Source: Alphaproteobacteria bacterium
Lineage (GTDB): Bacteria; Pseudomonadota; Alphaproteobacteria; CAAHEQ01; UBA3637
NCBI GenBank assembly: GCA_017960645.1
Contig: JAGCYU010000017.1
Span: 7,721-71,720 of the forward strand
Direction of reading: 5' to 3'
Length of the DNA: 64,000 bases
Shown: positions 4,012 to 43,784 of the stretch, one piece after another
How positions within the stretch are numbered: position 1 is the first letter of the stretch
Layout: the number at the start of each line of letters is the position of its first letter
The notes under the pieces: generated by a model
The model's input: only the letters and a program-made list of their open reading frames with translations
Told to the model about the DNA's origin: nothing
The model's database searches: none
Translations under genes and position numbers: made by a program

Positions 4012-4852
4012 CGCGGATCCATTCTTCATAAACATGATTCATATATAAGGTCATGGCATAAATTTTTTCAGGTAATGTTCCTGTTTCTGGAACTGGGATA
4101 GGGGGGAACATCGTAATAAAATAGCGCATATCAGGTTGGCGGATAGCATTGACCATAATTACTGGAACCCCTTTTTTAATGGCTAAATTGAAAATGGCTG
4201 AGGCTGTCATAGCGGGTTTTCCAAAGAAAGGAACTTCAATGCCTTCTCGTAACTTTTGATCGCATAAGATAGAGATAAATTCTCCGCGCTGCAATGTTTC
4301 AATCATCAACCGGGCGCCATGTGTTCCTTTGGGGATTTTTGTACCCTCTCTGCGTTGAAAAAGGAGTTTGTCCAGCCAAGGATTATTGGCTGCACGATAA
4401 ACGGGATTCATATGAAAACCTTCTATGACTTGTTCTGCAACAGGCAGTTCCCAATTGCCAAAATGGGCCGAGCAGATAAAGCCTCCCTTTCCAGCTTGAT
4501 AAGCTTGCCTGACAGATGAAGTATCCCCAAAAGTCGCTTGTTGCAAAACCTCTTTGCTGTGGGGTACTTCACCAAATAATGTGCCAAAATGCCGCCACAT
4601 TGCTTTTAAAATACGCTTTTTTTCTGATAAAGGTTTGTTTGGAAAAGCAACGTCCATATTTTTTAAGCCAATTTTATTGCGGCTGGGGACAAGATAATAG
4701 GCAAGACTACCCAAAAATCCTCCGAACTTTTGTGCTTGTTTTAGTGGTAAAATTTTTAAAATTAAATATAAAAATCCAACTCCCAGACCAACGGCAGGGT
4801 CTAAAATCAAAAATTGAAACCACGTGCGTCTGCCCTGTCTAATCCCCAACAT
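3911..4852 (-). CDS. lpxL: Lipid A biosynthesis late acyltransferase (LpxL/HtrB/MsbB family)
   Basis: N-terminal TM segment and the family motif CSAHFGNWE. Sits next to lpxK and waaA. Confidence 0.7.
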   Translation of the reverse strand: MLGIRQGRRTWFQFLILDPAVGLGVGFLYLILKILPLKQAQKFGGFLGSLAYYLVPSRNKIGLKNMDVAFPNKPLSEKKRILKAMWRHFGTLFGEVPHSKEVLQQATFGDTSSVRQAYQAGKGGFICSAHFGNWELPVAEQVIEGFHMNPVYRAANNPWLDKLLFQRREGTKIPKGTHGARLMIETLQRGEFISILCDQKLREGIEVPFFGKPAMTASAIFNLAIKKGVPVIMVNAIRQPDMRYFITMFPPIPVPETGTLPEKIYAMTLYMNHVYEEWIRANPEQWLWIHRRFDKSFYKDDIEQTPPQTTKAE

Positions 4853-5822
4853 GCATAAGTCCTTTCAATACATCGCGAACAGCTTTTTCGTCATCAAAAA
4901 TAAATTGGCCCGGCATAACATAAACATTTTGTCTGACTTCTCGGGGTACTTTAACACCGTCTTTTTCGGTTGTCAAAAGGGGTAAATCGCACGCCTTTTG
5001 CTTCATTTCTTCAATATCAAAACGCGTATAGGCATAATGATCCGGAAATTGTTGTGTTTGGGCGACAATAATACCCTGTTCAGTTAATGAATCAAAAAAC
5101 TTTTGGGGATTCCCAAGTCCAGCAAATGCAAAAACTTTTTTCCCTCGGAATAAGGAAACCACCGTTGTATCTAAGGCGAAATGTCCTGTAAAAATGGGGA
5201 TGTCTATGCCATTTCTTTCCAAAAAGAATTGTATGCCCCAAGTGTCTTCGCCTACAATAATAAGGGCGTCAGCACGAGCTAAACCTTTTAAAATAGGTTC
5301 ACGCAATGGTCCTGCAGGCAAAACACGTTCATTGCCAAATCCTTTTTTTCCATCTACAACCACAAAAGAAAATGTTTTGACCAAACTGGGGTGCTGGAAT
5401 CCATCATCCATTACCAAGAATTTTGCACCCAGCTTTTCGGCTAATTGAGCTCCTCTGGCTCTGTTGCTATCAACGATAGTATGTGCCATTTCGTTTAATA
5501 ATAAAGCCTCATCTCCAACATCAAAGGCCGAGTGTTTCATTTTATCAACCAAAACGCCCTGTTGTTCAGCTTTATAGCCATGGTTTAAAAAATAAAAAGG
5601 TTGATTTAAGCGTTGTAGCAAACGTCCAATAGCCAAAGATACAGGAGTTTTTCCTACCCCACCGACAGAAATATTTCCGATACAAACGACAGGAACGGAT
5701 GCTTGATAAGGCTTAACAGATTTTAAACGTCTGGCGACACTCCAAGCATAAATCTTTCCAAGCGGGTTTAAAATTTTTCCTAAAATGGAATCTCTTCTAT
5801 CCCAAAATTTTGGTGCTTGCAT
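4839..5822 (-). CDS. lpxK: Tetraacyldisaccharide 4'-kinase
   Basis: P-loop VVCIGNISVGGVGKTP is typical of LpxK. Lies in a waaA-lpxK-lpxL arrangement. Confidence 0.85.
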   Translation of the reverse strand: MQAPKFWDRRDSILGKILNPLGKIYAWSVARRLKSVKPYQASVPVVCIGNISVGGVGKTPVSLAIGRLLQRLNQPFYFLNHGYKAEQQGVLVDKMKHSAFDVGDEALLLNEMAHTIVDSNRARGAQLAEKLGAKFLVMDDGFQHPSLVKTFSFVVVDGKKGFGNERVLPAGPLREPILKGLARADALIIVGEDTWGIQFFLERNGIDIPIFTGHFALDTTVVSLFRGKKVFAFAGLGNPQKFFDSLTEQGIIVAQTQQFPDHYAYTRFDIEEMKQKACDLPLLTTEKDGVKVPREVRQNVYVMPGQFIFDDEKAVRDVLKGLMHVGD

Positions 5823-7135
5823 TACAAAATCCCCCTTTGTTGCATTAAGCTATACAATCTGTCTAATACATTCATCTCGGAAGTGGCAACTTGTTCGGCA
5901 TTTGCGCCCAATTCTGTTATTTTATTTGGATCGGATAACAATGTATCTATGGTCTGGGCTAAAGCTTCTTTGTTTTCCACTTCAATCAGAGCGTTATTTT
6001 CTTTTGCACTTGTGACAATTTCTCGGAAATTAAAGGCATGAGGCCCGACAATGGTAGCACGCTTTAACCGCATTGGTTCCAACATATTTTGCCCTCCGAA
6101 AGGAATCAAACTGCCTCCAACAAAAACAATATCTGTCAATTGATACAGTAGCCCCATTTCTCCAATCGTATCGGCCAAATAAAAATCTGTGTTGCTAGAG
6201 ATAGTATCCCCACGGCTGCGTCGAGCAATTTTTAATCCCTGTTTTATACACATGTTTTCAATTTCGGTTGCGCGATTAGGATGCCTTGGTACACAAACAG
6301 TAAGTAACGTTGGATACTTTTGTTTTAAGCTGAGGTGTACCTGGGCCATTTGCTCTTCTTCGTTATGATGTGTGGATGCCCCAGTCCAAGCTGGACGAGA
6401 GCCGATTTGATCCTTTAATTTTGTTAATTCTTGTGCATCAAAAGGTGCGATAGAAGCTGCATATTTAAGGTTACCAATACAATCTACATTGGCGCTGCCC
6501 AAAACCTGCAAACGACGCGCATTTTCTGGGGATTGACCCAAAGTTAAAGTGAATAGACCTAAAATGCTTTTAATAATACCGGGGGCTTTTTGCCAGCGAA
6601 CAAAGGACCTGTCAGAAATGCGCCCATTTAATAAAATCAAAGGAATCTTTGCCTTATGGATAGCATATAATGCATTAGGCCAAAATTCCGATTCAAACCA
6701 AAAAACTGCATCTGGGTGAAAATAACGGACAAAAGCATGTGTTCCCCATGGGCTGTCTATAGGCATAAACTGATGAAAAGCACGTTCTGGTAGCCTTTTG
6801 GCCATTAAAGTAGCAGAAGTAACTGTCCCGCTGGTGACCATGATATGCAAGGATGGATCCAATTCCAATAAGCGGTTAATCAAGGGGAGCATAGACAAAC
6901 ATTCCCCAACACTTGCGCCATGCATCCAAATAAGTTTTCCGTCTGGACGGGGACATTTTGGATATCCCAATCGTTCGAAAAATCTTTTTTTATCCTCTTT
7001 CCCCTTAATAAGCCGGCAGGCAAATAAAACACACAAAAAGGGTGTCAACAAAAGAAAAAGTACATTATATAAAAATATCCATATCATTTTTTTTAACTTT
7101 CTGTTAGAATAATATTGTAACAAACTTCGGGACAA
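5822..7135 (-). CDS. waaA: 3-deoxy-D-manno-octulosonic acid (Kdo) transferase
   Basis: N-terminal TM segment, WMHGASVGE motif, and a glycosyltransferase C-terminal half (VGGSLIPFGGQNMLEP). Confidence 0.85.
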   Translation of the reverse strand: MSRSLLQYYSNRKLKKMIWIFLYNVLFLLLTPFLCVLFACRLIKGKEDKKRFFERLGYPKCPRPDGKLIWMHGASVGECLSMLPLINRLLELDPSLHIMVTSGTVTSATLMAKRLPERAFHQFMPIDSPWGTHAFVRYFHPDAVFWFESEFWPNALYAIHKAKIPLILLNGRISDRSFVRWQKAPGIIKSILGLFTLTLGQSPENARRLQVLGSANVDCIGNLKYAASIAPFDAQELTKLKDQIGSRPAWTGASTHHNEEEQMAQVHLSLKQKYPTLLTVCVPRHPNRATEIENMCIKQGLKIARRSRGDTISSNTDFYLADTIGEMGLLYQLTDIVFVGGSLIPFGGQNMLEPMRLKRATIVGPHAFNFREIVTSAKENNALIEVENKEALAQTIDTLLSDPNKITELGANAEQVATSEMNVLDRLYSLMQQRGIL

Positions 7136-7145
7136 AAGGCAACTT

Positions 7146-7730
7146 ATGATAGGTGTTTATACAAAAAATAACTTTTTGACACAAAGTATAGTGGAACTTT
7201 TTAAGCATTTAGGGGCTACTCCTTGGCAATCAGGGCAGTCTTATCAAGCTCTGATTATTGCTTTGCCTCAAAAAGAGATAAATACGTTTTTTAAACAAAA
7301 TCCGACTATGTGGGCGATTTGTTTGGGATGTCATCATCCTCAAGCGTACCAATCTTTGTCCTTGCCGATTCATTTGGAAATTGTACAAAATGCTTTGTTG
7401 CAATTATTAAATGCAATAGCAGCCTATGCTCGTTTTGAAAATAATACCTTTATTTTTGATGCACGGACACGTCAGTTGTTTAACAAAAAATCGAAAAAGA
7501 CGATTGAGTTAACGGAAAAAGAAAGTGATTTATTGAGCTTTCTGGCTCAAGCGAAAAGACATAAAGTTTCGCGCGAAGAGATCATGAGCCAGGTGTGGAA
7601 ATATAATGAAAATACGGAAACGCATACACTAGACAGCCATATCTATTCATTACGGCAAAAACTTCAAAACGATACGGATGCATTGCTGACTTATCAAAAC
7701 GGATTTTTACAACTGGTTACTTTTCCATAA
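7146..7730 (+). CDS. OmpR/PhoB-type winged-helix DNA-binding protein with a degenerate receiver-like N-terminus
   Basis: C-terminal region LTEKESDLLSFLAQAKRHKVSREEIMSQVWKYNENTETHTLDSHIYSLRQKL matches the trans_reg_C pattern. The N-terminal half lacks the acidic pocket. Confidence 0.55.
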   Translation: MIGVYTKNNFLTQSIVELFKHLGATPWQSGQSYQALIIALPQKEINTFFKQNPTMWAICLGCHHPQAYQSLSLPIHLEIVQNALLQLLNAIAAYARFENNTFIFDARTRQLFNKKSKKTIELTEKESDLLSFLAQAKRHKVSREEIMSQVWKYNENTETHTLDSHIYSLRQKLQNDTDALLTYQNGFLQLVTFP

Positions 7731-8292
7731 CTAATTTATTACTTCTGTAATCTTCCGGTTTTACTTCTGAGGCAGAGATAGACCTTTTGGCAAGACTATA
7801 TAAAATCCGCTCGTTTATTTGGTCATATAAATCTGTGTTGCGCAAAACGGGGTTATATTGCATATACCATAAAACATTTCTGCCTTTATCATCTGTTGCT
7901 GCTACATTTGCACCAGCTTCTAGCAACAGTTTGACAATTTCTTTGTTAGGGGCATAATATCCGGCAAATAACAAAAGAGGAATAGGAGTTGTGACCCCTG
8001 GAATGGGAAAAGCATCCAACTTTTCTATGCTGTTGGCACGATTTTGATCCTGTTGTAAAATAGCGGCCAAAACCCCTGGTTCACCGCGCCGTACCGCCAG
8101 TTGCAATAAGGATCCGCCGCATTTTGTTTCTTCCTCTATATTAATCCCTTTGTCAATTAAATCTTGGATATCTGCTCTGGAACGTGCCTTGGCTACTCGT
8201 ACTTGTAAAGGAGAATAAGCGCATTCAAACTCGGCCGCCACAGCTACACCGCTTGCCAATAAACACATTATAAGAAATAAATATTTTTTCAT
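7717..8292 (-). CDS. Secreted ankyrin-repeat protein
   Basis: Signal peptide MKKYLFLIMCLLASGVAVA. ANK-like units GGSLLQLAVRRGEPGVLAAIL and KLLLEAGANVAATDDKGRNVLWY. Confidence 0.65.
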   Translation of the reverse strand: MKKYLFLIMCLLASGVAVAAEFECAYSPLQVRVAKARSRADIQDLIDKGINIEEETKCGGSLLQLAVRRGEPGVLAAILQQDQNRANSIEKLDAFPIPGVTTPIPLLLFAGYYAPNKEIVKLLLEAGANVAATDDKGRNVLWYMQYNPVLRNTDLYDQINERILYSLAKRSISASEVKPEDYRSNKLVMEK

Positions 8293-29297: not shown

Positions 29298-29549
29298 ATG
29301 GAAAAAATATTAAAATGGTTGCATTTTTTGTTCAGTTTTGTTGTTGATACATTTTTGATATTTGGCGTATTAGTTGTTGCTTTGTATTTCATTTGGGGGA
29401 TTACTCCTCAGACCATTGTTGAAAAAAGCAGTTATTTTTTCTCGGAAAGTTGGAAAATTATTTCTGGTCAAGATAAAAGTGCCCAACCCATTCCTGTTGT
29501 TACTCAAAAGCAAGTGGATGAGGCCCAAGAACATATCCACTATAAATAA
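29298..29549 (+). CDS. Small hypothetical membrane protein
   Basis: 83 aa ORF with one hydrophobic helix (FLFSFVVDTFLIFGVLVVALYFIW) and a GGAAAAG-type RBS. Confidence 0.3.
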   Translation: MEKILKWLHFLFSFVVDTFLIFGVLVVALYFIWGITPQTIVEKSSYFFSESWKIISGQDKSAQPIPVVTQKQVDEAQEHIHYK

Positions 29550-29604: not shown

Positions 29605-30123
29605 GTGAGGCTGAATAGCATGAAGAGCAAGACATGTAAACGACAGCTATATTTAATCGCACAAGGGCAAGCAGATAAATCTGCCCCCGTTTTGAATGAC
29701 ATGAAACGTCCTTTGTCACCAAAGGGGGTGTGCGCTATGTTAAATTTATTGGAAGAAATTAAGGAAAGAAAGCTGCCTTGCCCCGATTTGATTTTGTGTT
29801 CTTCTGGATTATGTGCACGGCAAAGTTTGGATTTATTGTACGAGGCATACTCTACTTGTGATGTGGTTTTTAAAGATAGTTTGTATGGTGCAATAGATTA
29901 TCGGATCTTTGATGTGGTCAAGGTATTGGATGATATTTTATATCGCGTTATGATTTTAACTGAAGATACTGCTTTAACGACTTTTATGAATTATATCACA
30001 GTAAAAGAAAATAAAATAAAACAAAAGCTGATGCCAGCTAGTTGTGCGGTTGTTTCTTTATCCCCAAATACGTCGTGGCATATGCTTGGCCCATCAAAAG
30101 CATGTGTGAGTGATTTTTTTTAA
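29605..30123 (+). CDS. SixA/histidine-phosphatase-superfamily-like protein lacking the RHG catalytic motif
   Basis: LYLIAQGQADKS...RPLSPKG aligns by eye with SixA (IMRHGDA...RPLT..G), and ILCSSGLCARQSL with LVSPFLRAEQT. RHG is replaced by AQG. Confidence 0.4.
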   Translation: MRLNSMKSKTCKRQLYLIAQGQADKSAPVLNDMKRPLSPKGVCAMLNLLEEIKERKLPCPDLILCSSGLCARQSLDLLYEAYSTCDVVFKDSLYGAIDYRIFDVVKVLDDILYRVMILTEDTALTTFMNYITVKENKIKQKLMPASCAVVSLSPNTSWHMLGPSKACVSDFF

Positions 30124-30168
30124 GAAAATCTTGCTTTCTGAACACAGTTGTGATAATATAACGAGGGG

Positions 30169-32004
30169 ATGAAAAAAGGGGGCCCAGGTATGTTGCGTGG
30201 ACAAAGTGTTGAGGGGAAAATTGTGCGTGTCATTGTGGAAACAGTGCATCCCTTGAATGATAAGCAACAAACCCATGTTCATAAAAAATTACAAGTGTTA
30301 TTACCCACCAAAAAAGTGGAGTGTTTTTTTAAATTAAATCCAAGTCTTTTAAGTGGAATTCGATTGGATTTTGGTACCTTGATTGTGGATGACAGCGTTC
30401 AAGCAAAGTTAAATGATTTTGTGGCCCAGACCAAAGAATCTTTACCAGTGGCTTTATCGGCTCGAAGCATAATGACGCATATTGAAAAGCATTTAAAGGA
30501 TTTTAACAATCAACCTGTTGTCCATACTGTTGGACATGTTGTAAGTGTATTGGATGGGGTGGCTCGAGTTGTCGGATTGCCCGATTTAATGGCTGGGGAA
30601 TTGGTAGCTTTCACCAGTGGAGCCAAAGGGATTGTTTTGAACTTAAATTCAGAATTTGTAGATGTGATTATTTTATATGCTTCAGAAAATATTCGAGAAG
30701 GGGAAAGTGTTGTTGGTACTCGTTCCAAGGTCACTGTGCCTGTTGGATTTGGTCTGTTAGGACGCGTGATCAATGCTTTGGGACAACCCGTGGATGATTT
30801 GGGCGAAATTGCTCATACAGGATATCGTGTGATGCAAATGCCTGCCCCGGATTTATTATCTCGAGTGCCTGTGACAAAACCGGTTCATACAGGGATTTTA
30901 GGAATAGATGCGCTCTTAGCTATTGGGAAAGGTCAACGAGAGCTGGTTATTGGCGATAGACAAACCGGAAAAACAACCCTATTGATCGATATGATTTTAA
31001 GTCAGCATGAATGCAATAAACAAGCGCGTTCTTTAACGGATAAAATGTTTTGTGTTTATGTGGCTATTGGTCAAAAACAATCCAGCGTGCGGGATCTGAT
31101 TCAGGTGTTAACAAAAGCGGGAGCGTTGGAAGATACGATTATTGTGATGGCCGGGGCTTCAGAAAGTGCTGCTATGCAATATTTAGCGCCATATGCCGGA
31201 TGTGCTATTGCTGAATATTTTCGGGATAATGGAATGAATGCCATGGTGTTTTATGATGACTTATCTAAACACGCAACAGCCTATCGTGAAATGTCTTTAT
31301 TGTTAAAACGTCCGGCGGGGCGTGAGGCTTATCCGGGGGATGTGTTCTATTTACATTCTCGTTTATTGGAAAGGGCTGGACAAATGTCATCAGAATATGG
31401 TGGCGGTTCTTTAACAGCCATCCCCGTTATCGAAACACAGGAAGGCGATGTGTCTGCCTATATTCCAACAAATGTGATTTCTATCACCGATGGTCAAATT
31501 TTCTTGGAATCTTCTTTGTTTCACCAAGGGATTAAACCGGCATTGAATGTGGGGTTATCCGTCAGCCGTGTTGGGGGCGCTGCTCAAACACCAATTATGA
31601 AAAAAATAGCCGCTTCCGTTAAATTAGAATTAGCACAATATCGTGAAGTTTTGGCATTTTCTCAGCTCTCTTCGGATTTAGATGTGGCAACGCAAAAACT
31701 GTTGAATCGTGGGGTGCGCTTAACAGAAATATTAAAACAATCTCAGCATCAACCTTTATCTTTGGCTGAAGAAGTTGTACGATTATTGGTTGGAACTAAA
31801 GGATATTTGGATGCCATTGATTTAGATATTATCCCAGAGTTTTTAAAAGGATTATATCCTTACGTTCAAAAGCATGCAGAAGACGTTATTGAATCTATAC
31901 GGGTATTTGGGGATTTAATTGATGACGAAATGGCTTTGTTGGATCAAACATTGCAAGCGTATGCACAAAATTTTAAATCAATAAATGAACGAAAGGAAGA
32001 ATAA
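30169..32004 (+). CDS. atpA: F1 ATP synthase alpha subunit with an in-frame N-terminal extension homologous to the C-terminal domain of subunit delta (OSCP)
   Basis: Residues ~15-90 (VETVHPLNDKQQ..KKVECFFKLNPSLLSGIRLDFGTLIVDDSVQAKLNDF) match the delta C-terminal pattern. From ~94 onward the sequence is canonical alpha (GHVVSVLDGVARVVGL, Walker A GDRQTGKT). Confidence 0.85.
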   Translation: MKKGGPGMLRGQSVEGKIVRVIVETVHPLNDKQQTHVHKKLQVLLPTKKVECFFKLNPSLLSGIRLDFGTLIVDDSVQAKLNDFVAQTKESLPVALSARSIMTHIEKHLKDFNNQPVVHTVGHVVSVLDGVARVVGLPDLMAGELVAFTSGAKGIVLNLNSEFVDVIILYASENIREGESVVGTRSKVTVPVGFGLLGRVINALGQPVDDLGEIAHTGYRVMQMPAPDLLSRVPVTKPVHTGILGIDALLAIGKGQRELVIGDRQTGKTTLLIDMILSQHECNKQARSLTDKMFCVYVAIGQKQSSVRDLIQVLTKAGALEDTIIVMAGASESAAMQYLAPYAGCAIAEYFRDNGMNAMVFYDDLSKHATAYREMSLLLKRPAGREAYPGDVFYLHSRLLERAGQMSSEYGGGSLTAIPVIETQEGDVSAYIPTNVISITDGQIFLESSLFHQGIKPALNVGLSVSRVGGAAQTPIMKKIAASVKLELAQYREVLAFSQLSSDLDVATQKLLNRGVRLTEILKQSQHQPLSLAEEVVRLLVGTKGYLDAIDLDIIPEFLKGLYPYVQKHAEDVIESIRVFGDLIDDEMALLDQTLQAYAQNFKSINERKEE

Positions 32005-33079: not shown

Positions 33080-34495
<1,416 letters not shown>

Positions 34496-34506: not shown

Positions 34507-34938
34507 ATGCGTGAACCAGAACCGGCACCGGATAATCAACATATAAGGATTAAAATTATTTCGCCTCAAAAGACAGTTTTAATGGCTGAAGTGGACAAGG
34601 TTTTATTGCCTTGTTTTAATGGGGATTTAATGATTTTACCACGTCATGCACCTTGTTTTTGTGCTATAAAAGCAGGTAAGTTATTGATTTATGATAAAGG
34701 AAAAATTATTCCTGTGATTGTGTCGGATGGTGTGGCAGAAATTCGACGAAATATTTGTGCTGTGTTGGCTTGGGGCATGTTATGCGATGATATTAAACGC
34801 CCCGAGGTAGAGGCACAATTAGCCGCAACAGAAAAGCTGTTGAAAACGATTCATACTTCTGAAAAACAAATGGAAGTATTGGCACGTGTTCGGTTCTTAA
34901 ATCTGTTAAAGGCCGAATTGGATGCTCGGGGCGAATAG
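34507..34938 (+). CDS. atpC: F1 ATP synthase epsilon subunit
   Basis: Last gene of the atp operon. IISPQKTVLMAEVDKVLLPCFNGDLMILPRHAP matches the epsilon N-terminal barrel pattern. Confidence 0.8.
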   Translation: MREPEPAPDNQHIRIKIISPQKTVLMAEVDKVLLPCFNGDLMILPRHAPCFCAIKAGKLLIYDKGKIIPVIVSDGVAEIRRNICAVLAWGMLCDDIKRPEVEAQLAATEKLLKTIHTSEKQMEVLARVRFLNLLKAELDARGE

Positions 34939-35454: not shown

Positions 35455-35877
35455 TTAATAGATGGCATAAAATAAATGGTTACCGATTTGTGCACAAGGA
35501 ACGGCACTATGTGCCCATTTAGGGTTGCAACATAGCGCATGATAATGTGTGGCCCCATGGGTGTTGTCTTTTAAACATCCAGCAATAGCACGCTTGGCAA
35601 TGCGGTAACAGATTTTATATACAGAATCTTGACTTAAATCTTGTTCCAGTAAAGGCGCATTGGCATCTTGTTTATTCCAACAAGAAAATTGAAAAGGTTT
35701 TTTGCATACTTCAATGATGGAATTTCCCCACCAATGTGATCCTTTTTGTATCGCAAATTTGACACGGTTTAAAATAACGTTGGCAACGGCTTCTATGCCG
35801 GCAACAGATTCACCTCGGGCTTCTCCATATAATGTTTTTGCCATGGTTTCAGCTTCATTTGATAAATTTTGCTTCAT
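35455..35877 (-). CDS. Cell-wall hydrolase (SleB/CwlJ, Hydrolase_2 family) endolysin
   Basis: LYGEARGESVAGIEAVANVILNRV and FSCWN motifs typical of SleB-type lytic enzymes. Follows the terminase gene. Confidence 0.7.
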   Translation of the reverse strand: MKQNLSNEAETMAKTLYGEARGESVAGIEAVANVILNRVKFAIQKGSHWWGNSIIEVCKKPFQFSCWNKQDANAPLLEQDLSQDSVYKICYRIAKRAIAGCLKDNTHGATHYHALCCNPKWAHSAVPCAQIGNHLFYAIY

Positions 35878-35894
35878 TTTATTCTCCCTTTAAA

Positions 35895-37334
35895 TTATCG
35901 CCACTTCGGGCGAGTTAAATTTTGAAATGGATTACGTTTTAATCGGATAGGTTCACACAACAAACAACCAGCAACAGCATCTAATACGTCATCATGACCC
36001 CGTGGTGCTTGCGGATTAAAATCTTGCATTTGCCCAATTAAATCTGTGTTTTTAACCGAGGTATGTACAAATAAGGCGCTGTTCATAAGTGGCGCTTCAA
36101 AGGCCGATAAAATCCGCTTGACTTTGTGTTCACGCGATATTTCTTCCAAAACAGCACAGGAAATGCCAGCTTTTTCCAACTCTTGTCGTAATAAGGCAGG
36201 CAAAAATTTTCCAATACCGTTACTTTCTAAGTGAATGGCTGGAATATAATTGTCGCGAATAAAACGTACGACTTGTTTGCATTGAAAACTTGCGGCTTCT
36301 GCATTAGGTGGAACCAACAATGTTTGAATGCGGTGCAAATAATAATGTCCCGAATCATCCGAAAAAACACAAGCTATGACGCTAGAATCCCCTTTTGCTG
36401 AACCGAAAGACGGATCCCACCAACAACTGACTGATACCATTTGTATGTTGCCGATTTTTAATGTGGCAGCATCATTTGCTTCATGGTATTCAATATCTTC
36501 ATGATAAAAGTTTAATCTAGCCGTATCCAGCCGCATTTCGGTTGGTAAAAATGGTTGCAACATCATTTGGCTGGCAAACTTGGATGGTGCAGTTGTTGCC
36601 TTTAATTCTTGAATTTTATCTGAACTAAAGCGCTCTGGCCAATTTGATTGCCCTTGTTTATTAATCAAAGGGATTTTCAAAGTTGGCCAGTTTTTTAAAA
36701 ACTCATCTGTATTGTAAATGGTGTCATTACTGTGGGGTGTGCCGATATACAATATCATGCCATTTGGTGTCAGAATATAATTCAGCTCATCCAGTTTGTG
36801 TTTTAATGTTAATCGTTTTGGATAAGTATCAGAAGTTTTTGGGACTTCCACATCATCACAAATAATCACATCGGCTCTGGAACCTGTAATGTTGCTGGAT
36901 AAACCGGCAGCTAATACAGACGGATCTCGCCCGTTTAGTGTACGATTGACAGTTAAACGATCCGAAGCCCATTCATTTGTATGAGATGGTTTTAATCCTA
37001 TACAAGCCGGATGTTTTTCCAAAATTCGTTTGATATGTTGTACCATTTTTTTTGCCAAGGCAAAATCTGCGGCCAAAATCAAAATCCTTGTATCCGGTTT
37101 AAAACATAACAACCATGCACAAAATAATCCTACTAAAGTAGATTTACCACTGCCTCGAAAAGCCATTAACAAAGCTTTTTTTTGAGGAATAAAAACATTT
37201 TGTAAAAATTGACAAATAGCTTTATGATGCTTAGGCACAGTTAAATGCAATGTATGCATCCAAATCCATACGAAATTAAGAAAATTCATCTGGGGTAACA
37301 TTGTCATTTTCGTTTTCTTTCTCGGCTTGCGCAA
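35895..37334 (-). CDS. Phage terminase large subunit
   Basis: Walker A MAFRGSGKSTLV, Walker B DVIICDDVE, and nuclease-domain start WWDPSFGSAKGDSSVIACVF. The true start may be a downstream Met (37289-37307). Confidence 0.8.
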   Translation of the reverse strand: MRKPRKKTKMTMLPQMNFLNFVWIWMHTLHLTVPKHHKAICQFLQNVFIPQKKALLMAFRGSGKSTLVGLFCAWLLCFKPDTRILILAADFALAKKMVQHIKRILEKHPACIGLKPSHTNEWASDRLTVNRTLNGRDPSVLAAGLSSNITGSRADVIICDDVEVPKTSDTYPKRLTLKHKLDELNYILTPNGMILYIGTPHSNDTIYNTDEFLKNWPTLKIPLINKQGQSNWPERFSSDKIQELKATTAPSKFASQMMLQPFLPTEMRLDTARLNFYHEDIEYHEANDAATLKIGNIQMVSVSCWWDPSFGSAKGDSSVIACVFSDDSGHYYLHRIQTLLVPPNAEAASFQCKQVVRFIRDNYIPAIHLESNGIGKFLPALLRQELEKAGISCAVLEEISREHKVKRILSAFEAPLMNSALFVHTSVKNTDLIGQMQDFNPQAPRGHDDVLDAVAGCLLCEPIRLKRNPFQNLTRPKWR

Positions 37335-37557
37335 TTAAATCTAACAGGCTTGTTTGAGCTTCGTTTTGGTTTGATTGTTTTGTTAGTTTGTTTAACAATA
37401 TGATATGCGCCAAAGCGGCTTTACAGGCATTATGATAGGCCGTAAATTCTTTGGTGTCGGATACAGGGGGCTGATCCGTAAAGGTTAAGTAATGTTGGAC
37501 TGTTTTGTTCAACACAGGGGTTAACATTTCCGATAAAGTTATGTTTTTATCGGGCAT
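37276..37557 (-). CDS. Phage-cluster hypothetical protein (small terminase candidate by position only)
   Basis: 93 aa ORF immediately upstream of, and overlapping, the large terminase gene. No motif recognised. Confidence 0.4.
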   Translation of the reverse strand: MPDKNITLSEMLTPVLNKTVQHYLTFTDQPPVSDTKEFTAYHNACKAALAHIILLNKLTKQSNQNEAQTSLLDLIAQAEKENENDNVTPDEFS

Positions 37558-37566
37558 GGTTCATCC

Positions 37567-38031
37567 TTATTCAATCATACTGCGTGACAGGTTGGATATG
37601 CTGTTTGTGACGGCCATTCCTTGGTCATTTGTTAACATTTTTAATCGCAATAAATTTTGAGTATTGATTCTTTCAATGCTGTTTTTTAAAGCTTCCAAAG
37701 AAATATTGGCTTGGCCTTGGACATATTTATCTTCCATATCATGTTCTTTTTGCATTGTATTTAATACCACTTGGCCTGAGCCTGATGATTGGCTGAGGTT
37801 GCTGGCACCCAGCTTGGCACGATAAGCAGATTGTTGTTGTGCCAATAAATTTCTGCTTTTACGTTGGTGTTCAGCCAAGGTATTTTCAATATTTTGCTGA
37901 TTTAATTTAGCCTGATAATTTTCTGCTTTGTTTGCCGCTTTTGTGGCTTTTTTTTGCATCCGCAAATTATCTAATGAAAAATAGGTGGATGCTAAGTTTG
38001 TAATAACTGATGCTGCAGCTGCTGCTTCCAT
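37567..38031 (-). CDS. Phage-cluster hypothetical coiled-coil protein
   Basis: 154 aa, rich in Q, N, A and K. Tightly packed between the tail gene and the terminase genes. Confidence 0.4.
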   Translation of the reverse strand: MEAAAAASVITNLASTYFSLDNLRMQKKATKAANKAENYQAKLNQQNIENTLAEHQRKSRNLLAQQQSAYRAKLGASNLSQSSGSGQVVLNTMQKEHDMEDKYVQGQANISLEALKNSIERINTQNLLRLKMLTNDQGMAVTNSISNLSRSMIE

Positions 38032-38033
38032 AA

Positions 38034-39968
38034 TTAACCTCCTAGTTTAATATCACTCGTTACCGATACTAATTTGAATGGTAAAGGCGTATCCCCTTTG
38101 ATTTCCCATAAAGGAGAAGTAGGGGTACGACTCCATCCTAAACAACGGACAACGACATCTTGTGTTTTTGCGCTATTGGCGCTGTTGAGTGTATAACTTG
38201 ATAAATTGGGTACCAATTCTTGATGTGCTCCTGAGCCTGTATCAATTTCCAAAGATTTTGTGTCAATGACGCGGAATACGGCACGGACAAGTCGGCTGTT
38301 TGCTACCGGAGCGCCTCCAGATCCCGAAACGCTTGATGCTACAGGCGGCAAAGGAACAACGATATGAGAAAAGGGCAATCCTATTTCGAATTGTTTTGCC
38401 GGATGAGCTACCTGGATGGTATTACTTTGAACGGTTTGTTTGTCCAAAATGATGTCATCTGCAACAATAGCTACTTTTTTATTATTCAGCACGCTCAGGT
38501 TATTTACAGTAGTTGTTGCCGTTTCTTTAGTTATAAGATAAGCGCTATCTGTGTGACAATTCTCGTCCAAATATTCCAAGTGATAGACGCTATCTCGCTT
38601 GACAATGAAATACGCCGTTTTACCCAATATACCAACTGCTAAAAATTTACCATCTGTTGTTTGTTCGGTCCAACTTTGTAAATTTTCTGAACGAAAACTG
38701 GTTAATGTTGCCATTTTCCCCGTGTTCATGACAATATAGGCTTGACGTTCATTTTTGTCATAAGCCATATCAATTGGATTTTGTATTAAATGGCTGGATA
38801 GCAAAGACAGATCGGTTGCTTGGTACATGCCTTCCAGATCAGAGAAAAGAAATTCACGGATTTCATGACCATTTTCTGCCGCAAAAATTGTTGCGCCATC
38901 AATACCAATTGGAGGAACAAAGCGCGTGTCACACGATCCTACTTGTGTTTGACGCTTTAGCTGTATCTCGCTGGGGGTCAAAGGATCCCCAGACACCATC
39001 CATTCTGCACTGGTGGTAAAAATTTGCAAGTGTCTGCCCGCAAATAAGGCACATATTTTGTTGGATTGGTCTGATAAAATATCAAACTCGATTGCTTCTG
39101 CATCATAGCCGGCCCCTGTTTCAAAATTTTTGATATCTCCAGATTGGCTAAACCAAAGTGTATTTGGTAAGCTTTTACTGCCACCGAAAACGAGTCTGGA
39201 TTGATAGGTGCATACGGTGGCTGGCCAACCGTATTCTGAACAAAAAGCAGGTTCGCCCCATGCTCTGGTTGCTTCCAAGACGGTATTTTCTCCTACATTA
39301 TCATCATTGATGAGTTTTTTTAAAACAGTCGCTTGCGCATGTGTGCTATCAGTCACAGCCGTAATTAAAACATAACCCTCTGCTAATTTAAATTGTTTGT
39401 TGACATGACTGTTTGTAAAAAGTGCCTCGCTGGCCGTTAAGGTGACATTGTTTAAACAACCTGAGCTTGAAATCGTTACACTATCGTCACAAAATCGATG
39501 ATAAGGCTGCAAAATACAACTGTCCTCAGTTAAGAAAGAAAAGTTATCCTTGGTCCATGTATTACCAGATTTATGAATCAAAATAGGTTGTGTATCTGGA
39601 TGGACAAAAATGACACCTTGGTTTTGTAAGGCTGCCCATTGCACAGTATTAACTTGTTCCAATGTCCACGGCATCGTGATAGTTGTGACAAAAGTATTGT
39701 CATGGTAAATATCCAGACGTTGGTTCATTAAAATCAAAAGATATTGATCCGTGCTAGACAAATCGTATGGAATCAATCGTCCGGACGAGGTCAAAGAAGC
39801 AATGTACCTTAACCCCGGACGACGATGAATTCCTCCGGTCGGTTCCACAAACACATTTTTTAATGAAAAAGCCCCGTTGTTATAAGCATTTAAATCAACG
39901 CGCCCCAATAAATCTGTGCTTAATTCTCCGCTGGTAAAATTGGTTTTGCTGGTGAAAATATTTGTCAT
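38034..39968 (-). CDS. Large phage tail/nozzle protein (tail tubular protein B-like by position)
   Basis: 644 aa, overlapping the upstream adaptor-like gene by 4 nt. Occupies the T7 gp12 position downstream of capsid and the gp11-like gene. Confidence 0.5.
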   Translation of the reverse strand: MTNIFTSKTNFTSGELSTDLLGRVDLNAYNNGAFSLKNVFVEPTGGIHRRPGLRYIASLTSSGRLIPYDLSSTDQYLLILMNQRLDIYHDNTFVTTITMPWTLEQVNTVQWAALQNQGVIFVHPDTQPILIHKSGNTWTKDNFSFLTEDSCILQPYHRFCDDSVTISSSGCLNNVTLTASEALFTNSHVNKQFKLAEGYVLITAVTDSTHAQATVLKKLINDDNVGENTVLEATRAWGEPAFCSEYGWPATVCTYQSRLVFGGSKSLPNTLWFSQSGDIKNFETGAGYDAEAIEFDILSDQSNKICALFAGRHLQIFTTSAEWMVSGDPLTPSEIQLKRQTQVGSCDTRFVPPIGIDGATIFAAENGHEIREFLFSDLEGMYQATDLSLLSSHLIQNPIDMAYDKNERQAYIVMNTGKMATLTSFRSENLQSWTEQTTDGKFLAVGILGKTAYFIVKRDSVYHLEYLDENCHTDSAYLITKETATTTVNNLSVLNNKKVAIVADDIILDKQTVQSNTIQVAHPAKQFEIGLPFSHIVVPLPPVASSVSGSGGAPVANSRLVRAVFRVIDTKSLEIDTGSGAHQELVPNLSSYTLNSANSAKTQDVVVRCLGWSRTPTSPLWEIKGDTPLPFKLVSVTSDIKLGG

Positions 39969-40534
39969 TGTCGTACCTCAATCAAAGAAAAATCTTGAAA
40001 ACAGCTGGGGACAGATTGTTGACTGTCCGCTAATTTGGCAGCTTTTATTTCTTCTTCAGCTAAATTTTTCATGTAGTCTGTGCGGGTTGTGCTTTCAGTT
40101 AAAGGTAAACAAAATTCTGCGGCCAATTTTGCAATCAACGCTGTGACAAAAAAGGAAGGAAAGTTTTCTTCCAACGGTCGGGAGATATACGATATCACAA
40201 CATGATCTGCATTCGTATAAAGTTTATCCTGTACAATTTTATAGTTTAGACCAGAAGATTTATAGCCGCTGCCTGCTGATAAAATACGAATCACATCATT
40301 TGGCAGTTGATATGCATATTGATAGTCTGCAGTAGGGTTAGCCGTTAAACGATTTAAAGTAGCTTGTTCTAAAGCAAAACGCCATGGATATTGCGCCAAT
40401 AATCCTTCTAAGACAGGCGCATATAATTGGGCGGCAATTTGTGCTTCTGCCGTCGTATCATTAAAAGATGAAATGCCTGAAGCGCCTAATTTGACTAAGG
40501 CGCGGGAACATAAACTGATGGCGGTATAATTCAT
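39965..40534 (-). CDS. Head-to-tail adaptor / tail tubular protein A-like
   Basis: 189 aa from the ATG at 40534 (AGGAGA RBS). N-terminal ISLCSRALVKLGASGISSFND pattern and gp11-like position. Confidence 0.45.
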   Translation of the reverse strand: MNYTAISLCSRALVKLGASGISSFNDTTAEAQIAAQLYAPVLEGLLAQYPWRFALEQATLNRLTANPTADYQYAYQLPNDVIRILSAGSGYKSSGLNYKIVQDKLYTNADHVVISYISRPLEENFPSFFVTALIAKLAAEFCLPLTESTTRTDYMKNLAEEEIKAAKLADSQQSVPSCFQDFSLIEVRQ

Positions 40535-40604
40535 TTTAATCTCCTTGTAATAAAACCCCTTCCTAACGAAAGGAAGGGGCATAGTATTATTTTATATGTA
40601 TGAT

Positions 40605-41468
40605 TTATGTTTCTGCTTCTTCTTCAGCTGGTGGTGTGTCCAAACAAACCATTTTGACAACACCTTTTGGATCAATCAAACATGCGCCTTGGCTCATCAT
40701 GTTATTAACATAGTGAGCAGCATAATCTCCATGCCATGTGATGTCTGTTGTAATATCTTGACCAGCGGCTAAACCAACGGCAGATTTATGATAGATAAAG
40801 CAGGTCGTTGTAGCGCTTGATCCAGAACCGGAAGTCGGCAAACCTGTGTGCATGATCCAGTTAATACCCATCCATTTGCGCGATTCTGAACCGGACAATA
40901 ATGGGTGTTCATTTCCAACATAGTTTGCATTTGAAAATTCCTCCATGCTTAATAATTGATTCCATTGTGCAGGTCCGACCAAGGCAAAACGTTCGCCATC
41001 ATCAGGAACTTCATTGGTATTCAATGTTTGAAATGCGCTTAAAATGCGTTCTTTTGTTAAGGCTTCAGAGGATGTCCCCGCCGTTTGGGAAGCAGAACTT
41101 AAGGCCGTAATAATCAATGCATCAGTTTTGCGACCCAAGGCATAGGCGCCTGCAGTTGCCAAAACTTGACGTTCATCATGACCGACTTTTAATTCATCCA
41201 TTTTGTCAACCCACTGTCCTGCATACCAATCGGACAAAGTGCATTCTACTGGCGCATGTGTGACGGCGGCAGGTGTCAATTGGGCATTGCGTGAAGATTT
41301 TTGGTTGGCAGTTTGAGCACCAATGACTTGGAACGTTGTGGATGTTCCTGTAATATTGTCTTTAAAACGAACGGTCTTTTTTAATTTTGATCCTTGTTGT
41401 TGATAAGCATTGTGTACCTCGGCTTGAAAATGCTTAATGAAAGAGGCATCAATTGCTGTACTTGTCAT
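40605..41468 (-). CDS. Phage major capsid protein
   Basis: 287 aa following the scaffold gene. N-terminal FIKHFQAEVHNAYQQQGSKLKKTVR and the overall pattern resemble P22-coat/BPP-1-type capsid proteins (recollection only). Confidence 0.65.
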   Translation of the reverse strand: MTSTAIDASFIKHFQAEVHNAYQQQGSKLKKTVRFKDNITGTSTTFQVIGAQTANQKSSRNAQLTPAAVTHAPVECTLSDWYAGQWVDKMDELKVGHDERQVLATAGAYALGRKTDALIITALSSASQTAGTSSEALTKERILSAFQTLNTNEVPDDGERFALVGPAQWNQLLSMEEFSNANYVGNEHPLLSGSESRKWMGINWIMHTGLPTSGSGSSATTTCFIYHKSAVGLAAGQDITTDITWHGDYAAHYVNNMMSQGACLIDPKGVVKMVCLDTPPAEEEAET

Positions 41469-41596
41469 ATTTTTCCTTTCAGTAATATTTTGTTGTTATT
41501 AAAATTTAAACCTTTGTTTGAGTTGTGAAATAAATTCGCTCGTGCAAAGGGTAGACGAGGGGTTTAGTATTGCTACTAAACTTATCCAGAAAAGGG

Positions 41597-42283
41597 TTAG
41601 TCATATAGGCGTTTGAATCCGTTTTCAACGCGTTTGATCAGTTCCGGATCTTGGTCACGCCAATATTTGGGGCTTTGCATGAGTTTTTTTAAGGTGGCTT
41701 CATCATCTTGAGTGGAAACCAAACCTTTGCCCTGTACCAGAGGAGAATCTATGCCCCGTGTCATCATTTGATACATTGTTAAAATGCCATCTTTTGATTG
41801 TGATAATGTTTCAAAGACACTAGGTGCTAAATTTTTTTCACCCCAAGCGGCTATTTGATGGGCAATCTGATTAAATTGTTCCGGTCCGCCAAACGTTTGT
41901 TCCAATGCTTCCAGCTCTTTGTCTTGCTGTATTTTTTGTCCGACTTGTTCCAGAACTGGCAAGACTTTTTCAAGGGCTAAATCATATACAAGCTGTGCTT
42001 GTTCATTTGTAAAGCCGTGTTCAAACAAAAGTTTGTTAATCTCGGGATCCGGTTGAATTAAAGGATTCTTCATTTCCAGTTGATAGTTTTCGGGTTTATC
42101 GGGCATAGTCCCTACAGATTTTGGCATAGAGGACATTTTCTTTTCCAATGCCAAATATGATTTCAATAGGTCGTTTGTTTTTAACTCTCCTTTGTCATCC
42201 AAAAATTTTTTTGGCGTTTCTGGGACTTGTGTTTCTTTAATATCTTCAGTTTCTTCAATTTTTTCATTTTCTTTATCTGTCAT
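41597..42283 (-). CDS. Phage scaffolding protein candidate
   Basis: 228 aa, acidic and helical, located between the portal and capsid genes with a 1-nt gap to portal. Confidence 0.5.
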   Translation of the reverse strand: MTDKENEKIEETEDIKETQVPETPKKFLDDKGELKTNDLLKSYLALEKKMSSMPKSVGTMPDKPENYQLEMKNPLIQPDPEINKLLFEHGFTNEQAQLVYDLALEKVLPVLEQVGQKIQQDKELEALEQTFGGPEQFNQIAHQIAAWGEKNLAPSVFETLSQSKDGILTMYQMMTRGIDSPLVQGKGLVSTQDDEATLKKLMQSPKYWRDQDPELIKRVENGFKRLYD

Positions 42284-42284
42284 G

Positions 42285-43784
42285 TCATGCTCCTTGGTTA
42301 GACAGGGTTAATGGAATCATAGGTGCTTCTGGGGCTTTTTTGAAAATGGATTCTGGAATGTTCAATTTTTCTCCAAACCATTTGACAAACGCACCTATAT
42401 CAATTTGAGACAGGGCGCTTTCTCCTAATTGAGCAATAGAATTCAGCCAAGTTAAACCGTTGTTTGCATCAATTTGAGCTTGTTTTTCTGCACGGGTGGA
42501 TTTGTACGAAATTTTTAGTAAGCGCCCATCAATAAAGACGTCTGGTATTTCTCCACGTTTGCGTAAAATATAAGTGGCCCGATCAATAAGCGGGGTTAAC
42601 AATTCTGATTGCAAACGACCATAGGTGGCGCCCAAAATCATAATCATTTCATCCGATCGTTCAATGACTTCGGTTGCTGTCATCTTCATCGCACCATCTG
42701 CTTGTCCAAGTTTATCGCCCAGTAAAGCGTGCTTAATGCGTTCTCTTAAATCTTTAAGGACCAATTGAGACACATCAAATTTTCCAGGGGATTCTAGTGC
42801 TGTCAGACCTTTTGACCCGACCGCTTTTGGAATGATAGCTCCGGGGACAAGTTGAATGTTGGCAGGATTTAAAACGCCATCATCCTCGGCAAGCCAAATG
42901 CCTGTCACGGCGATTGTGGCATTTTTAAGGATAAGTTCCACAACCTTGTTTGCCGTTTTAATATCCGGCAAAGCCTTCATGACAGGGGAACGGCCGTAAA
43001 CTTCCCCGGGAGCTTTAAGCCAACGGAAGGCAATAAGTGGTGAGGTACTATACGTTGTTTCTTTGAGTATAATAGGCTCAACATTATTGGAGAGATGTTG
43101 GCTGGTAGGGTTTAAAAAAGCAATGTAATCGTAGGCGCCTTGTGTGTTTGGACAGACAGATTCAATGACTTCTAACGCAATTTTTCCTTGTTGTGCATCG
43201 TTGACAATATCTGCCGGTAAAAGTTCATCACCAAAACGAGTCACAAATTCGTCGTAATCTAAACGGAGTGTGCGAAAAATGTGATCCAATTTTCCTGTGG
43301 CGCTTTCGCTTAATGCAATCTGGGACAGGGGAACCGCTGTAAAATGAAAAGCAGAGTTTGCACCAATGGGAGCTTCTTCAAACATTAAACAAGCTGTGCC
43401 GACTGTAATTAAATCTAAATAGCATTGATGGATTTCCATCGCTAAATTGCTGCGGTCAAAGTGTGTTTGTAATGTGTTAGATATAGTTTCAAGTGTTGGG
43501 GCAATTTTTTCTTTATCATCGTCTGTTAAATCTGTGCCTGTACTCAGTTTGAACCAACTCATCCATGGTGGCGTTAGTTCGGATAAAAGTAATGCAGCCA
43601 ATTGATCCACAGCGTCTGGGGCAGTTCCATCATAAAGCTGGTTTATTTTGGAACTAGCCGTACGAAAGACTGTTTCCCGTTGTGGAAAAGCAAAGGTATA
43701 ACAATCTTGCCAAGTGCTTTCCCATGCGCCACGTTCAGCGATGGCCTTTTTATAAGTTGTGTACAGATTGGATATATCTGTCAT
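42285..43784 (-). CDS. Phage portal (head-to-tail connector) protein
   Basis: 499 aa at the first position of the structural block. N-terminal ...ERGAWESTWQDCYTFAFPQRE resembles T7-gp8-type connector proteins. Confidence 0.65.
   Translation of the reverse strand: MTDISNLYTTYKKAIAERGAWESTWQDCYTFAFPQRETVFRTASSKINQLYDGTAPDAVDQLAALLLSELTPPWMSWFKLSTGTDLTDDDKEKIAPTLETISNTLQTHFDRSNLAMEIHQCYLDLITVGTACLMFEEAPIGANSAFHFTAVPLSQIALSESATGKLDHIFRTLRLDYDEFVTRFGDELLPADIVNDAQQGKIALEVIESVCPNTQGAYDYIAFLNPTSQHLSNNVEPIILKETTYSTSPLIAFRWLKAPGEVYGRSPVMKALPDIKTANKVVELILKNATIAVTGIWLAEDDGVLNPANIQLVPGAIIPKAVGSKGLTALESPGKFDVSQLVLKDLRERIKHALLGDKLGQADGAMKMTATEVIERSDEMIMILGATYGRLQSELLTPLIDRATYILRKRGEIPDVFIDGRLLKISYKSTRAEKQAQIDANNGLTWLNSIAQLGESALSQIDIGAFVKWFGEKLNIPESIFKKAPEAPMIPLTLSNQGA

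Follow-up and report, generated by a model that had tools for sequence, protein, structure and literature searches.

The subject of this report is a stretch of 64,000 nucleotides, called the window in the following, from an Alphaproteobacteria bacterium (GTDB lineage Alphaproteobacteria; CAAHEQ01; UBA3637; GenBank assembly GCA_017960645.1, contig JAGCYU010000017.1, positions 7,721 to 71,720 of the forward strand). It contains an F1 operon of ATP synthase with the order fused gene, gamma, beta and epsilon, which is the alphaproteobacterial type atpHAGDC with its first two genes merged. The fused gene (atpH C-domain::atpA) is an open reading frame (ORF) of 611 amino acids at 30169..32004 (+), in which the C-terminal domain of subunit delta (OSCP) is followed, in one frame, by a short linker and then by the whole of an F1 alpha subunit; its product is called deltaΔN-alpha here. 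The textbook F-type ATP synthase has one peripheral stalk and one a-subunit, and therefore its H+/ATP ratio is fixed by the size of the c-ring. The N-terminal helical bundle of delta (about 100 amino acids) caps alpha3beta3 and binds the alpha N-termini; delta's C-terminal domain binds the C-termini of the b-subunits in canonical enzymes.

The delta/OSCP C-terminal alpha/beta domain occupies amino acids 17-84 (30217..30420, +), which matched profile positions 101-168 of 172 of PF00213 (E 8e-11; 42.8 bits versus a cut-off of 22.3). The delta equivalogs of NCBIfam matched by their last ~70 positions alone and stayed under the cut-off (TIGR01145, 38.4 versus 57.5). Sixteen residues precede the C-domain, and nothing in the fused ORF matched profile positions 1-100 of PF00213, the delta N-terminal helical bundle. 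A linker of ~11 residues (amino acids 85-95; 30421..30453, +), which contains a GTG codon at 30448, was delimited by a gapless alignment to a protein of known structure (9jc1, chain I, see below) and by a structural model. Thereafter the N-terminal helix region of alpha is kept (amino acids 96-117; 30454..30519, +), with L96 (TTA) in the ancestral Met1 column of alpha and with position 4 of NCBIfam atpA (TIGR00962) at amino acid 98. Alpha proper (30520..32001, +) consists of the beta-barrel, the nucleotide-binding domain with the invariant Walker A motif GDRQTGKT, and the C-terminal helical domain. The corresponding Pfam domains were found at amino acids 118-184 (ATP-synt_ab_N), 242-466 (ATP-synt_ab) and 473-597 (ATP-synt_ab_C), and TIGR00962 covered amino acids 98-602 with model positions 4-501 of 503 (682.5 bits versus a cut-off of 484.45). 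The N-terminal helix of alpha (alpha residues 2-30) normally contacts delta (PMC12229609).

Three candidate starts are available for the fused ORF: ATG 30169 (611 amino acids), ATG 30190 (604 amino acids), at which the database gene call (P0001) begins, and GTG 30223, which has GAGG ahead of it. The entire delta C-domain is retained whichever of the three is used. A first-pass annotation, made from the sequence alone, had described a delta that is cut to its C-terminal domain, lacks the helical bundle and is fused in frame to a canonical alpha beginning near residue 94; this description is borne out in all its parts by Pfam and NCBIfam, by the alignment to 9jc1_I and by Foldseek.

The junction stretch 29900-30900 recurred without any mismatch in contigs from three gut-metagenome runs, each assembled independently (word depth 10-14), and a fourth run (bovine gut, another study) also matched except for an uncovered gap of 25 nt at 30277-30301. 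Such agreement among independent assemblies is far beyond chance. The best database matches, with 53-83% identity and lengths of 592-638 amino acids, carried OSCP and alpha domains in 120 of 120 cases. A scan with one genome per GTDB species yielded 33 loci with an uninterrupted fused ORF and no inner stop; nearly all of these genomes are labelled as metagenome-assembled genomes (MAGs) of uncultured Alphaproteobacteria, from guts of sheep, roe deer, buffalo, yak, rabbit and other animals. Comparison of the atpH/atpA junction in related genomes showed that the fused form is conserved in this gut clade, whereas in distant alphaproteobacterial loci (Geminicoccus, Rhodospirillales, Holosporales) a full-length delta stops before alpha. 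Within a large clade of uncultured Alphaproteobacteria from animal guts, the fusion is fixed.

When the N-terminal 125 residues of 45 representatives (<75% identical) were aligned, one single-residue indel was found across delta-C, linker and alpha, in one sequence. The medians of dN/dS (Nei-Gojobori) were 0.115 for delta-C, 0.27 for the linker and alpha N-helix, and 0.06 for the remainder of alpha; these medians are rough, since dS was saturated for most pairs, and close pairs with dS below ~1 were relied on, several of which gave 0.03-0.05 for delta-C. The delta part is under purifying selection; because of its low dN/dS, the extension is to be regarded as a selected part of the protein. An exhaustive search of representative sequences returned mostly fragments; at 50% identity, fused proteins of full length are probably grouped together with ordinary alphas, and no clean family size could be derived. 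A word-indexed search with the N-terminal 144 amino acids matched nothing, the window's own protein included, which is a limit of the tool and no sign of uniqueness.

Some peculiarities of single loci were noted. On a contig of 1619 nt from a Sheep_Rectum MAG (L038), a delta-C of the fused type is followed by a frame break just past the alpha N-helix, which is probably an assembly or sequencing error and not an unfused variant. Two fused loci from MAGs labelled Lactobacillales (L012) and Pseudomonadota (L016) are clearly of the gut alphaproteobacterial type, and their odd labels are probably due to mis-binning or coarse labelling. In many homologues, for example P0008, P0010, P0013 and P0040, a short tail rich in Lys/Arg (KKKKK, KRKRK) stands before the delta C-domain; the N-terminus of the fused protein of the window has MKKGGPGMLRGQSVEGK in its place.

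The best sequence match in the PDB was chain I of 9jc1, which was deposited under the name "ATP synthase delta subunit, ATP synthase subunit alpha" and represents an engineered protein of Bacillus PS3. Amino acids 20-232 of the window protein aligned to residues 5-217 of the chain with no gap (E 4e-32), and the native linker (…AQTKESLPVALSARSIM…) overlies the designed linker (…RQLIGGSGGSIRAEEIS…). The fused protein and the engineered chain are collinear residue by residue. An AlphaFold2 model, calculated with 55 homologues, had a mean pLDDT of 81.7; in it, residues 11-83 are predicted to fold as the delta C-domain in the order strand-helix-strand-strand-strand-helix (β-α-β-β-β-α; pLDDT 84-93), the linker is less confident (pLDDT ~65), and the alpha N-terminal helix appears at model residues 91-104, corresponding to amino acids 98-111. 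With this model as query, the top match in Foldseek was again 9jc1_I, with 587 of 604 columns versus ~490-510 for ordinary alphas, and the chains I, J and K of 9jc1 were all among the four best matches.

For the construction of the engineered enzyme, residues 2-104 of Bacillus PS3 delta were deleted and residues 105-178 were fused to alpha (Ueno et al., Nat Commun 2025; PMC12229609). The rationale was that the delta N-domain, lying on the pseudo-threefold axis, allows the enzyme no more than one stalk; its removal clears the three-fold axis atop alpha3beta3 (PMC12229609). Each alpha-borne delta-C then binds a b2 stalk in the canonical manner and each stalk brings its own a-subunit, so that up to three b2 stalks were present; the stoichiometry of a and b was raised about twofold, with an average of about 2 (PMC12229609). 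The H+/ATP ratio was 5.8 versus 3.0 and the threshold proton-motive force was halved (PMC12229609).

Downstream of the fused gene follow atpG (gamma, 364 amino acids, PF00231; 31985..33079, +), atpD (beta, 471 amino acids; 33080..34495, +) and atpC (epsilon, 143 amino acids; 34507..34938, +), the last two likewise assigned by Pfam. The gamma subunit of the window is ~70 amino acids longer than that of unfused relatives, and Pfam aligned its amino acids 10-358 to a mere 277 profile positions. Gamma has 349-364 amino acids in all fused gut alphaproteobacterial loci (L001-L037, L067) versus 293 in unfused alphaproteobacterial relatives, and 310 in the fused loci of Clostridia type described below. 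The insertion of ~60-70 amino acids, which co-occurs with the fusion, apparently lies before a conserved Y-x-x-EP motif (roughly gamma amino acids 215-285). When delta/OSCP and Fo subunits were searched with phmmer in the 64-kb window and in flanks of 6-10 kb of 38 fused loci, the fused ORFs alone matched.

In relatives at 54-82% AtpA identity the common gene order is a YgjP-like gene, a small single-transmembrane protein, sometimes a SixA-like gene, the fused gene, gamma, beta and epsilon. The SixA/His_Phos_1-like gene of the window (29605..30123, +) ends 45 nt upstream of the fused ORF and occupies the place otherwise taken by the N-terminal half of delta; some relatives have it and others lack it. 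Its match is weak (TIGR00249, E 5.5e-5, below the cut-off), and it is unrelated to delta, as had been annotated. The small single-transmembrane protein (83 amino acids; 29298..29549, +) is conserved just ahead of the F1 operon in most of the fused clade, with 83-107 amino acids in L002, L004, L006-L008, L011, L012, L014, L017 and L020, and also in L023, L025-L028, L031, L032, L037 and L067. It matched no Pfam family and possesses one N-terminal transmembrane helix, and most members share the motifs W.LLG..P.E and A.DR..G.DPYE; in the copy of the window the first motif has the variant form WGITPQT and the second is missing. This small ORF of ~100 amino acids was considered as a detached delta N-domain and was rejected, in view of its N-terminal transmembrane helix and its lack of similarity to OSCP.

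Directly after atpC lies a structural module similar to that of podoviruses (T7) at 35455-43784 (-), with genes for an endolysin, a large terminase, tail tubular A-like and B-like proteins, a major head protein, a scaffold-like protein and a portal. No replication genes were seen adjoining it. The module is found at the same place in L001, L002 and L004/L005, although their AtpA proteins are 54-82% identical, and it looks like a long-retained, possibly domesticated element, similar to a gene transfer agent.

A second deltaC::alpha family was encountered in six rumen MAGs labelled Clostridia or Clostridiales (L047, L057, L058, L063, L065, L066). These fused proteins have 634-637 amino acids and an acidic linker of ~70 amino acids, as in L047, where the gene lies at 5914-7818. 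The operon of L047 is complete and consists of a (4113-5000), c (5021-5287), b (5307-5921, 204 amino acids) and then deltaC::alpha, with no delta gene. A third form, P0266, has 745 amino acids (L071 6001-8238, also L072 and L073) and is a triple fusion of a b-like transmembrane helix with coiled coil, delta-C and alpha. It was found on 6 contigs from different runs, and its operon is complete, too, without a separate delta: I-like (104 amino acids), a, c, b (138 amino acids), the fusion, gamma (333 amino acids), beta and epsilon (96 amino acids, no C-terminal domain). By the domain order of P0266, every alpha would come with a stalk arm of its own that is anchored in the membrane. Other database entries have a full-length OSCP (profile ~10-172) fused to alpha (P0175, 676 amino acids; P0184, 699 amino acids) or repeated OSCP matches in 349-412 amino acids (P0141, P0142, P0154); in both cases gene-calling artefacts are possible.

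The alphaproteobacterial and the Clostridia fusions may well have arisen independently, as is suggested by the pairwise identities, because the fused alpha of L014 is ~60% identical to unfused alphaproteobacterial alphas versus ~55% to the fused alpha of Clostridia. For the window alpha, which evolves faster, the values are nearly equal (52-53% versus 50-52%). Horizontal transfer between the two groups was considered as well; the pairwise identities speak against it.

Taken together, the ORF encodes a natural deltaΔN-alpha subunit, which would probably provide a covalent stalk-docking site on every alpha and thereby a multi-stalk enzyme with a high number of ions per ATP. The covalent link would stand in for the non-covalent grip of the delta N-domain on alpha, and the holoenzyme would carry more than one peripheral stalk (b/b') and more than one a-subunit. 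With more than one stalk, the ion-per-ATP ratio should be higher, which would suit ATP synthesis at low membrane potential and an anaerobic life in the gut. By analogy with the engineered enzyme, the multi-stalk consequence appears likely, and it gains support because the operons of Clostridia type and of P0266 exist without delta. A more specific proposal, which we hold more tentatively, as a serious possibility falling a little short of probable, is a naturally triple- or at least double-stalk enzyme, (deltaC-alpha)3 beta3 gamma epsilon, in which a and b/b' would each be present in 2-3 copies, with a 2-3x ion-per-ATP ratio. At least three convergent origins of such an enzyme would be implied, one each for gut Alphaproteobacteria, rumen Clostridia/Negativicutes and the b::deltaC::alpha lineage, and the gamma insertion and the small transmembrane protein could be co-adaptations.

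Several points weigh against a natural multi-stalk enzyme. The multi-stalk step is extrapolated from a single engineered enzyme of a thermophile, and Alphaproteobacteria use a b/b' heterodimer, which is not the case tested in the PS3 enzyme. The Fo operon (a, c, b, b'), and with it the evidence on c-ring size, the C-termini of b/b' and gene dosage, is outside the searched window and flanks; a full-length delta could also be encoded separately elsewhere in the genome. Finally, triple-stalk particles of the PS3 fusion were rare, the stalks were labile and the activity was lower (PMC12229609).

Among the alternatives, the one that survives best holds that the link merely replaces the lost anchor, for example following a deletion in a streamlined genome, and that a single stalk is built, with two delta-C domains empty and H+/ATP unchanged. 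This explanation is unlikely, but it deserves to be taken seriously: fusion and loss of the N-domain are evident, the occupancy of the sites is not settled by sequence, and many particles of the engineered enzyme had one stalk (PMC12229609). The gene turnover upstream, where the SixA-like gene is present or absent, is also in keeping with it. However, extra stalks and a-subunits were assembled by default in the PS3 enzyme, with no further adaptation (PMC12229609), the architecture seems to have arisen more than once in lineages of anaerobes, and a b arm on every alpha in the P0266 lineage would be hard to square with two idle sites.

It is improbable that a full-length delta encoded elsewhere forms the usual single stalk and that the alpha-borne delta-C has another role, regulatory or in assembly. 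The searches covered the window and the flanks of the loci, and the Fo operon lies at another place, as is common in Alphaproteobacteria. Yet the truncated delta stands exactly at the ancestral atpH position heading atpHAGDC, no second delta was detected in either the window or the flanks of the 38 loci, and the complete single-locus operons of the two other fused lineages do without a separate delta. Moreover, an N-domain among three alpha-borne delta-C domains atop F1 would seem sterically awkward, judging from the geometry of the engineered enzyme (PMC12229609).

Even less credit can be given to the model of the first-pass annotation, according to which fused (~66 kDa) and unfused (~55 kDa) alpha are both made, the latter from the in-frame GTG at 30448, with one delta-C per alpha3beta3 and hence a reconciled 1:3 stoichiometry. 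The GTG is present, two codons before the ancestral Met1 column of alpha, and 31 of 37 fused loci have some ATG, GTG or TTG within 15 junction codons. However, no start codon is conserved in any junction column: in the ancestral Met1 column GTT occurs 17 times, TTG 6 times and ATG 5 times, and 6 of the 37 are without any of the three start codons in the 15 junction codons. A motif similar to a Shine-Dalgarno (SD) sequence precedes a junction candidate in 1/37 loci, the beta start in 25/33, and is found near the start of the fused ORF in 27/37; the use of SD sequences is moderate in these genomes, so that this survey is no absolute proof. There is no SD sequence before GTG 30448, and a scan for promoters and terminators gave matches at chance level. 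Judged by codons and motifs, internal initiation is not a conserved feature. Nor is it needed to rescue the stoichiometry, because the engineered enzyme, in which all alphas are fused, is functional and its three delta-C domains are three stalk sites (PMC12229609). An artefact or decaying pseudogene (an atpH stop lost by sequencing error, as the same annotation had considered, mis-assembly, or a functionless remnant of delta) has in its favour nothing beyond the prior plausibility for a single reduced genome, and is refuted with practical certainty because four independent assemblies agree and because the fusion is conserved in 33 species and 120/120 best matches, with dN/dS of ~0.1 and a delta C-domain that is confidently folded in the predicted model.

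The fusion engineered in 2025 broke the one-stalk rule, and the possible natural counterparts that its authors could name were Acidaminococcus and two UniProt entries. This kind of fusion had thus already been flagged, and with the window it is extended by a large new lineage: an identical design is fixed under selection in a whole clade of animal-gut Alphaproteobacteria with at least 33 species-level genomes (ruminant, rabbit, others). It is hidden in current annotation because the genes bear the plain label "F0F1 ATP synthase subunit alpha". In the literature that was searched, no report of the fusion in Alphaproteobacteria and no experimental proof of a natural deltaΔN-alpha enzyme came to light. 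Several natural operons are now on hand for the question whether multi-stalk F-ATP synthases with high H+/ATP occur in nature, and for asking if they represent an adaptation by anaerobes near the thermodynamic limit.

Among known systems, the canonical atpHAGDC operons of Geminicoccus and Rhodospirillales (L042, L055) have the same gene order, with delta directly before alpha, but their delta is of full length (~180-190 amino acids), with a stop before alpha, and their gamma has 293 amino acids. A covalent fusion involving the stator delta is also known from mycobacteria, where b is joined to a full-length delta (atpFH) and the single stalk is kept. P0266 combines the b-delta idea of mycobacteria with the delta-alpha idea, without the delta N-domain. 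The engineered PS3 chain (9jc1) resembles the protein of the window most closely: in both, the delta N-domain is gone and the delta C-domain is joined by a short linker, of about equal length, to the alpha N-terminus. They differ in that the window protein is natural, from a split operon of alphaproteobacterial type (F1 genes, b/b' expected), and has a native linker (…TKESLPVALSA…), whereas the PS3 chain was designed, with a linker of Gly/Ser; furthermore, epsilon of the window keeps its C-terminal part (143 amino acids) whereas epsilonΔC was used in the construct, gamma of the window has the insertion of ~70 amino acids, unlike the PS3 construct, and stalk number and H+/ATP are known for the PS3 enzyme alone.

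A natural F1Fo that has two stalks and a pair of a-subunits is that of Chloroflexus aurantiacus, in which a shortened delta N-domain dimerises (PMC12002316). As would be expected for the enzyme described here, an altered delta N-domain escapes the one-stalk rule and each delta-C docks one b2 stalk; the delta of Chloroflexus is, however, a separate subunit, not fused to alpha, and at most two stalks, not three, can be carried. A possible natural counterpart is the operon of Acidaminococcus fermentans, with a delta-alpha fusion that lacks the delta N-domain (UniProt D2RLW6; Discussion and Suppl. Fig. 9 of PMC12229609). Ueno et al. mentioned two further UniProt entries with a natural fusion and proposed that a natural multi-stalk enzyme is "highly likely" (PMC12229609). 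The A. fermentans fusion, here compared by description, shares with the window the same kind of gene fusion, the missing delta N-domain and an anaerobic gut bacterium as host. Acidaminococcus fermentans belongs to the Negativicutes and has a single operon beginning with a-c-b, whereas the window is alphaproteobacterial; since the two organisms are in different phyla, their fusions are probably of independent origin.

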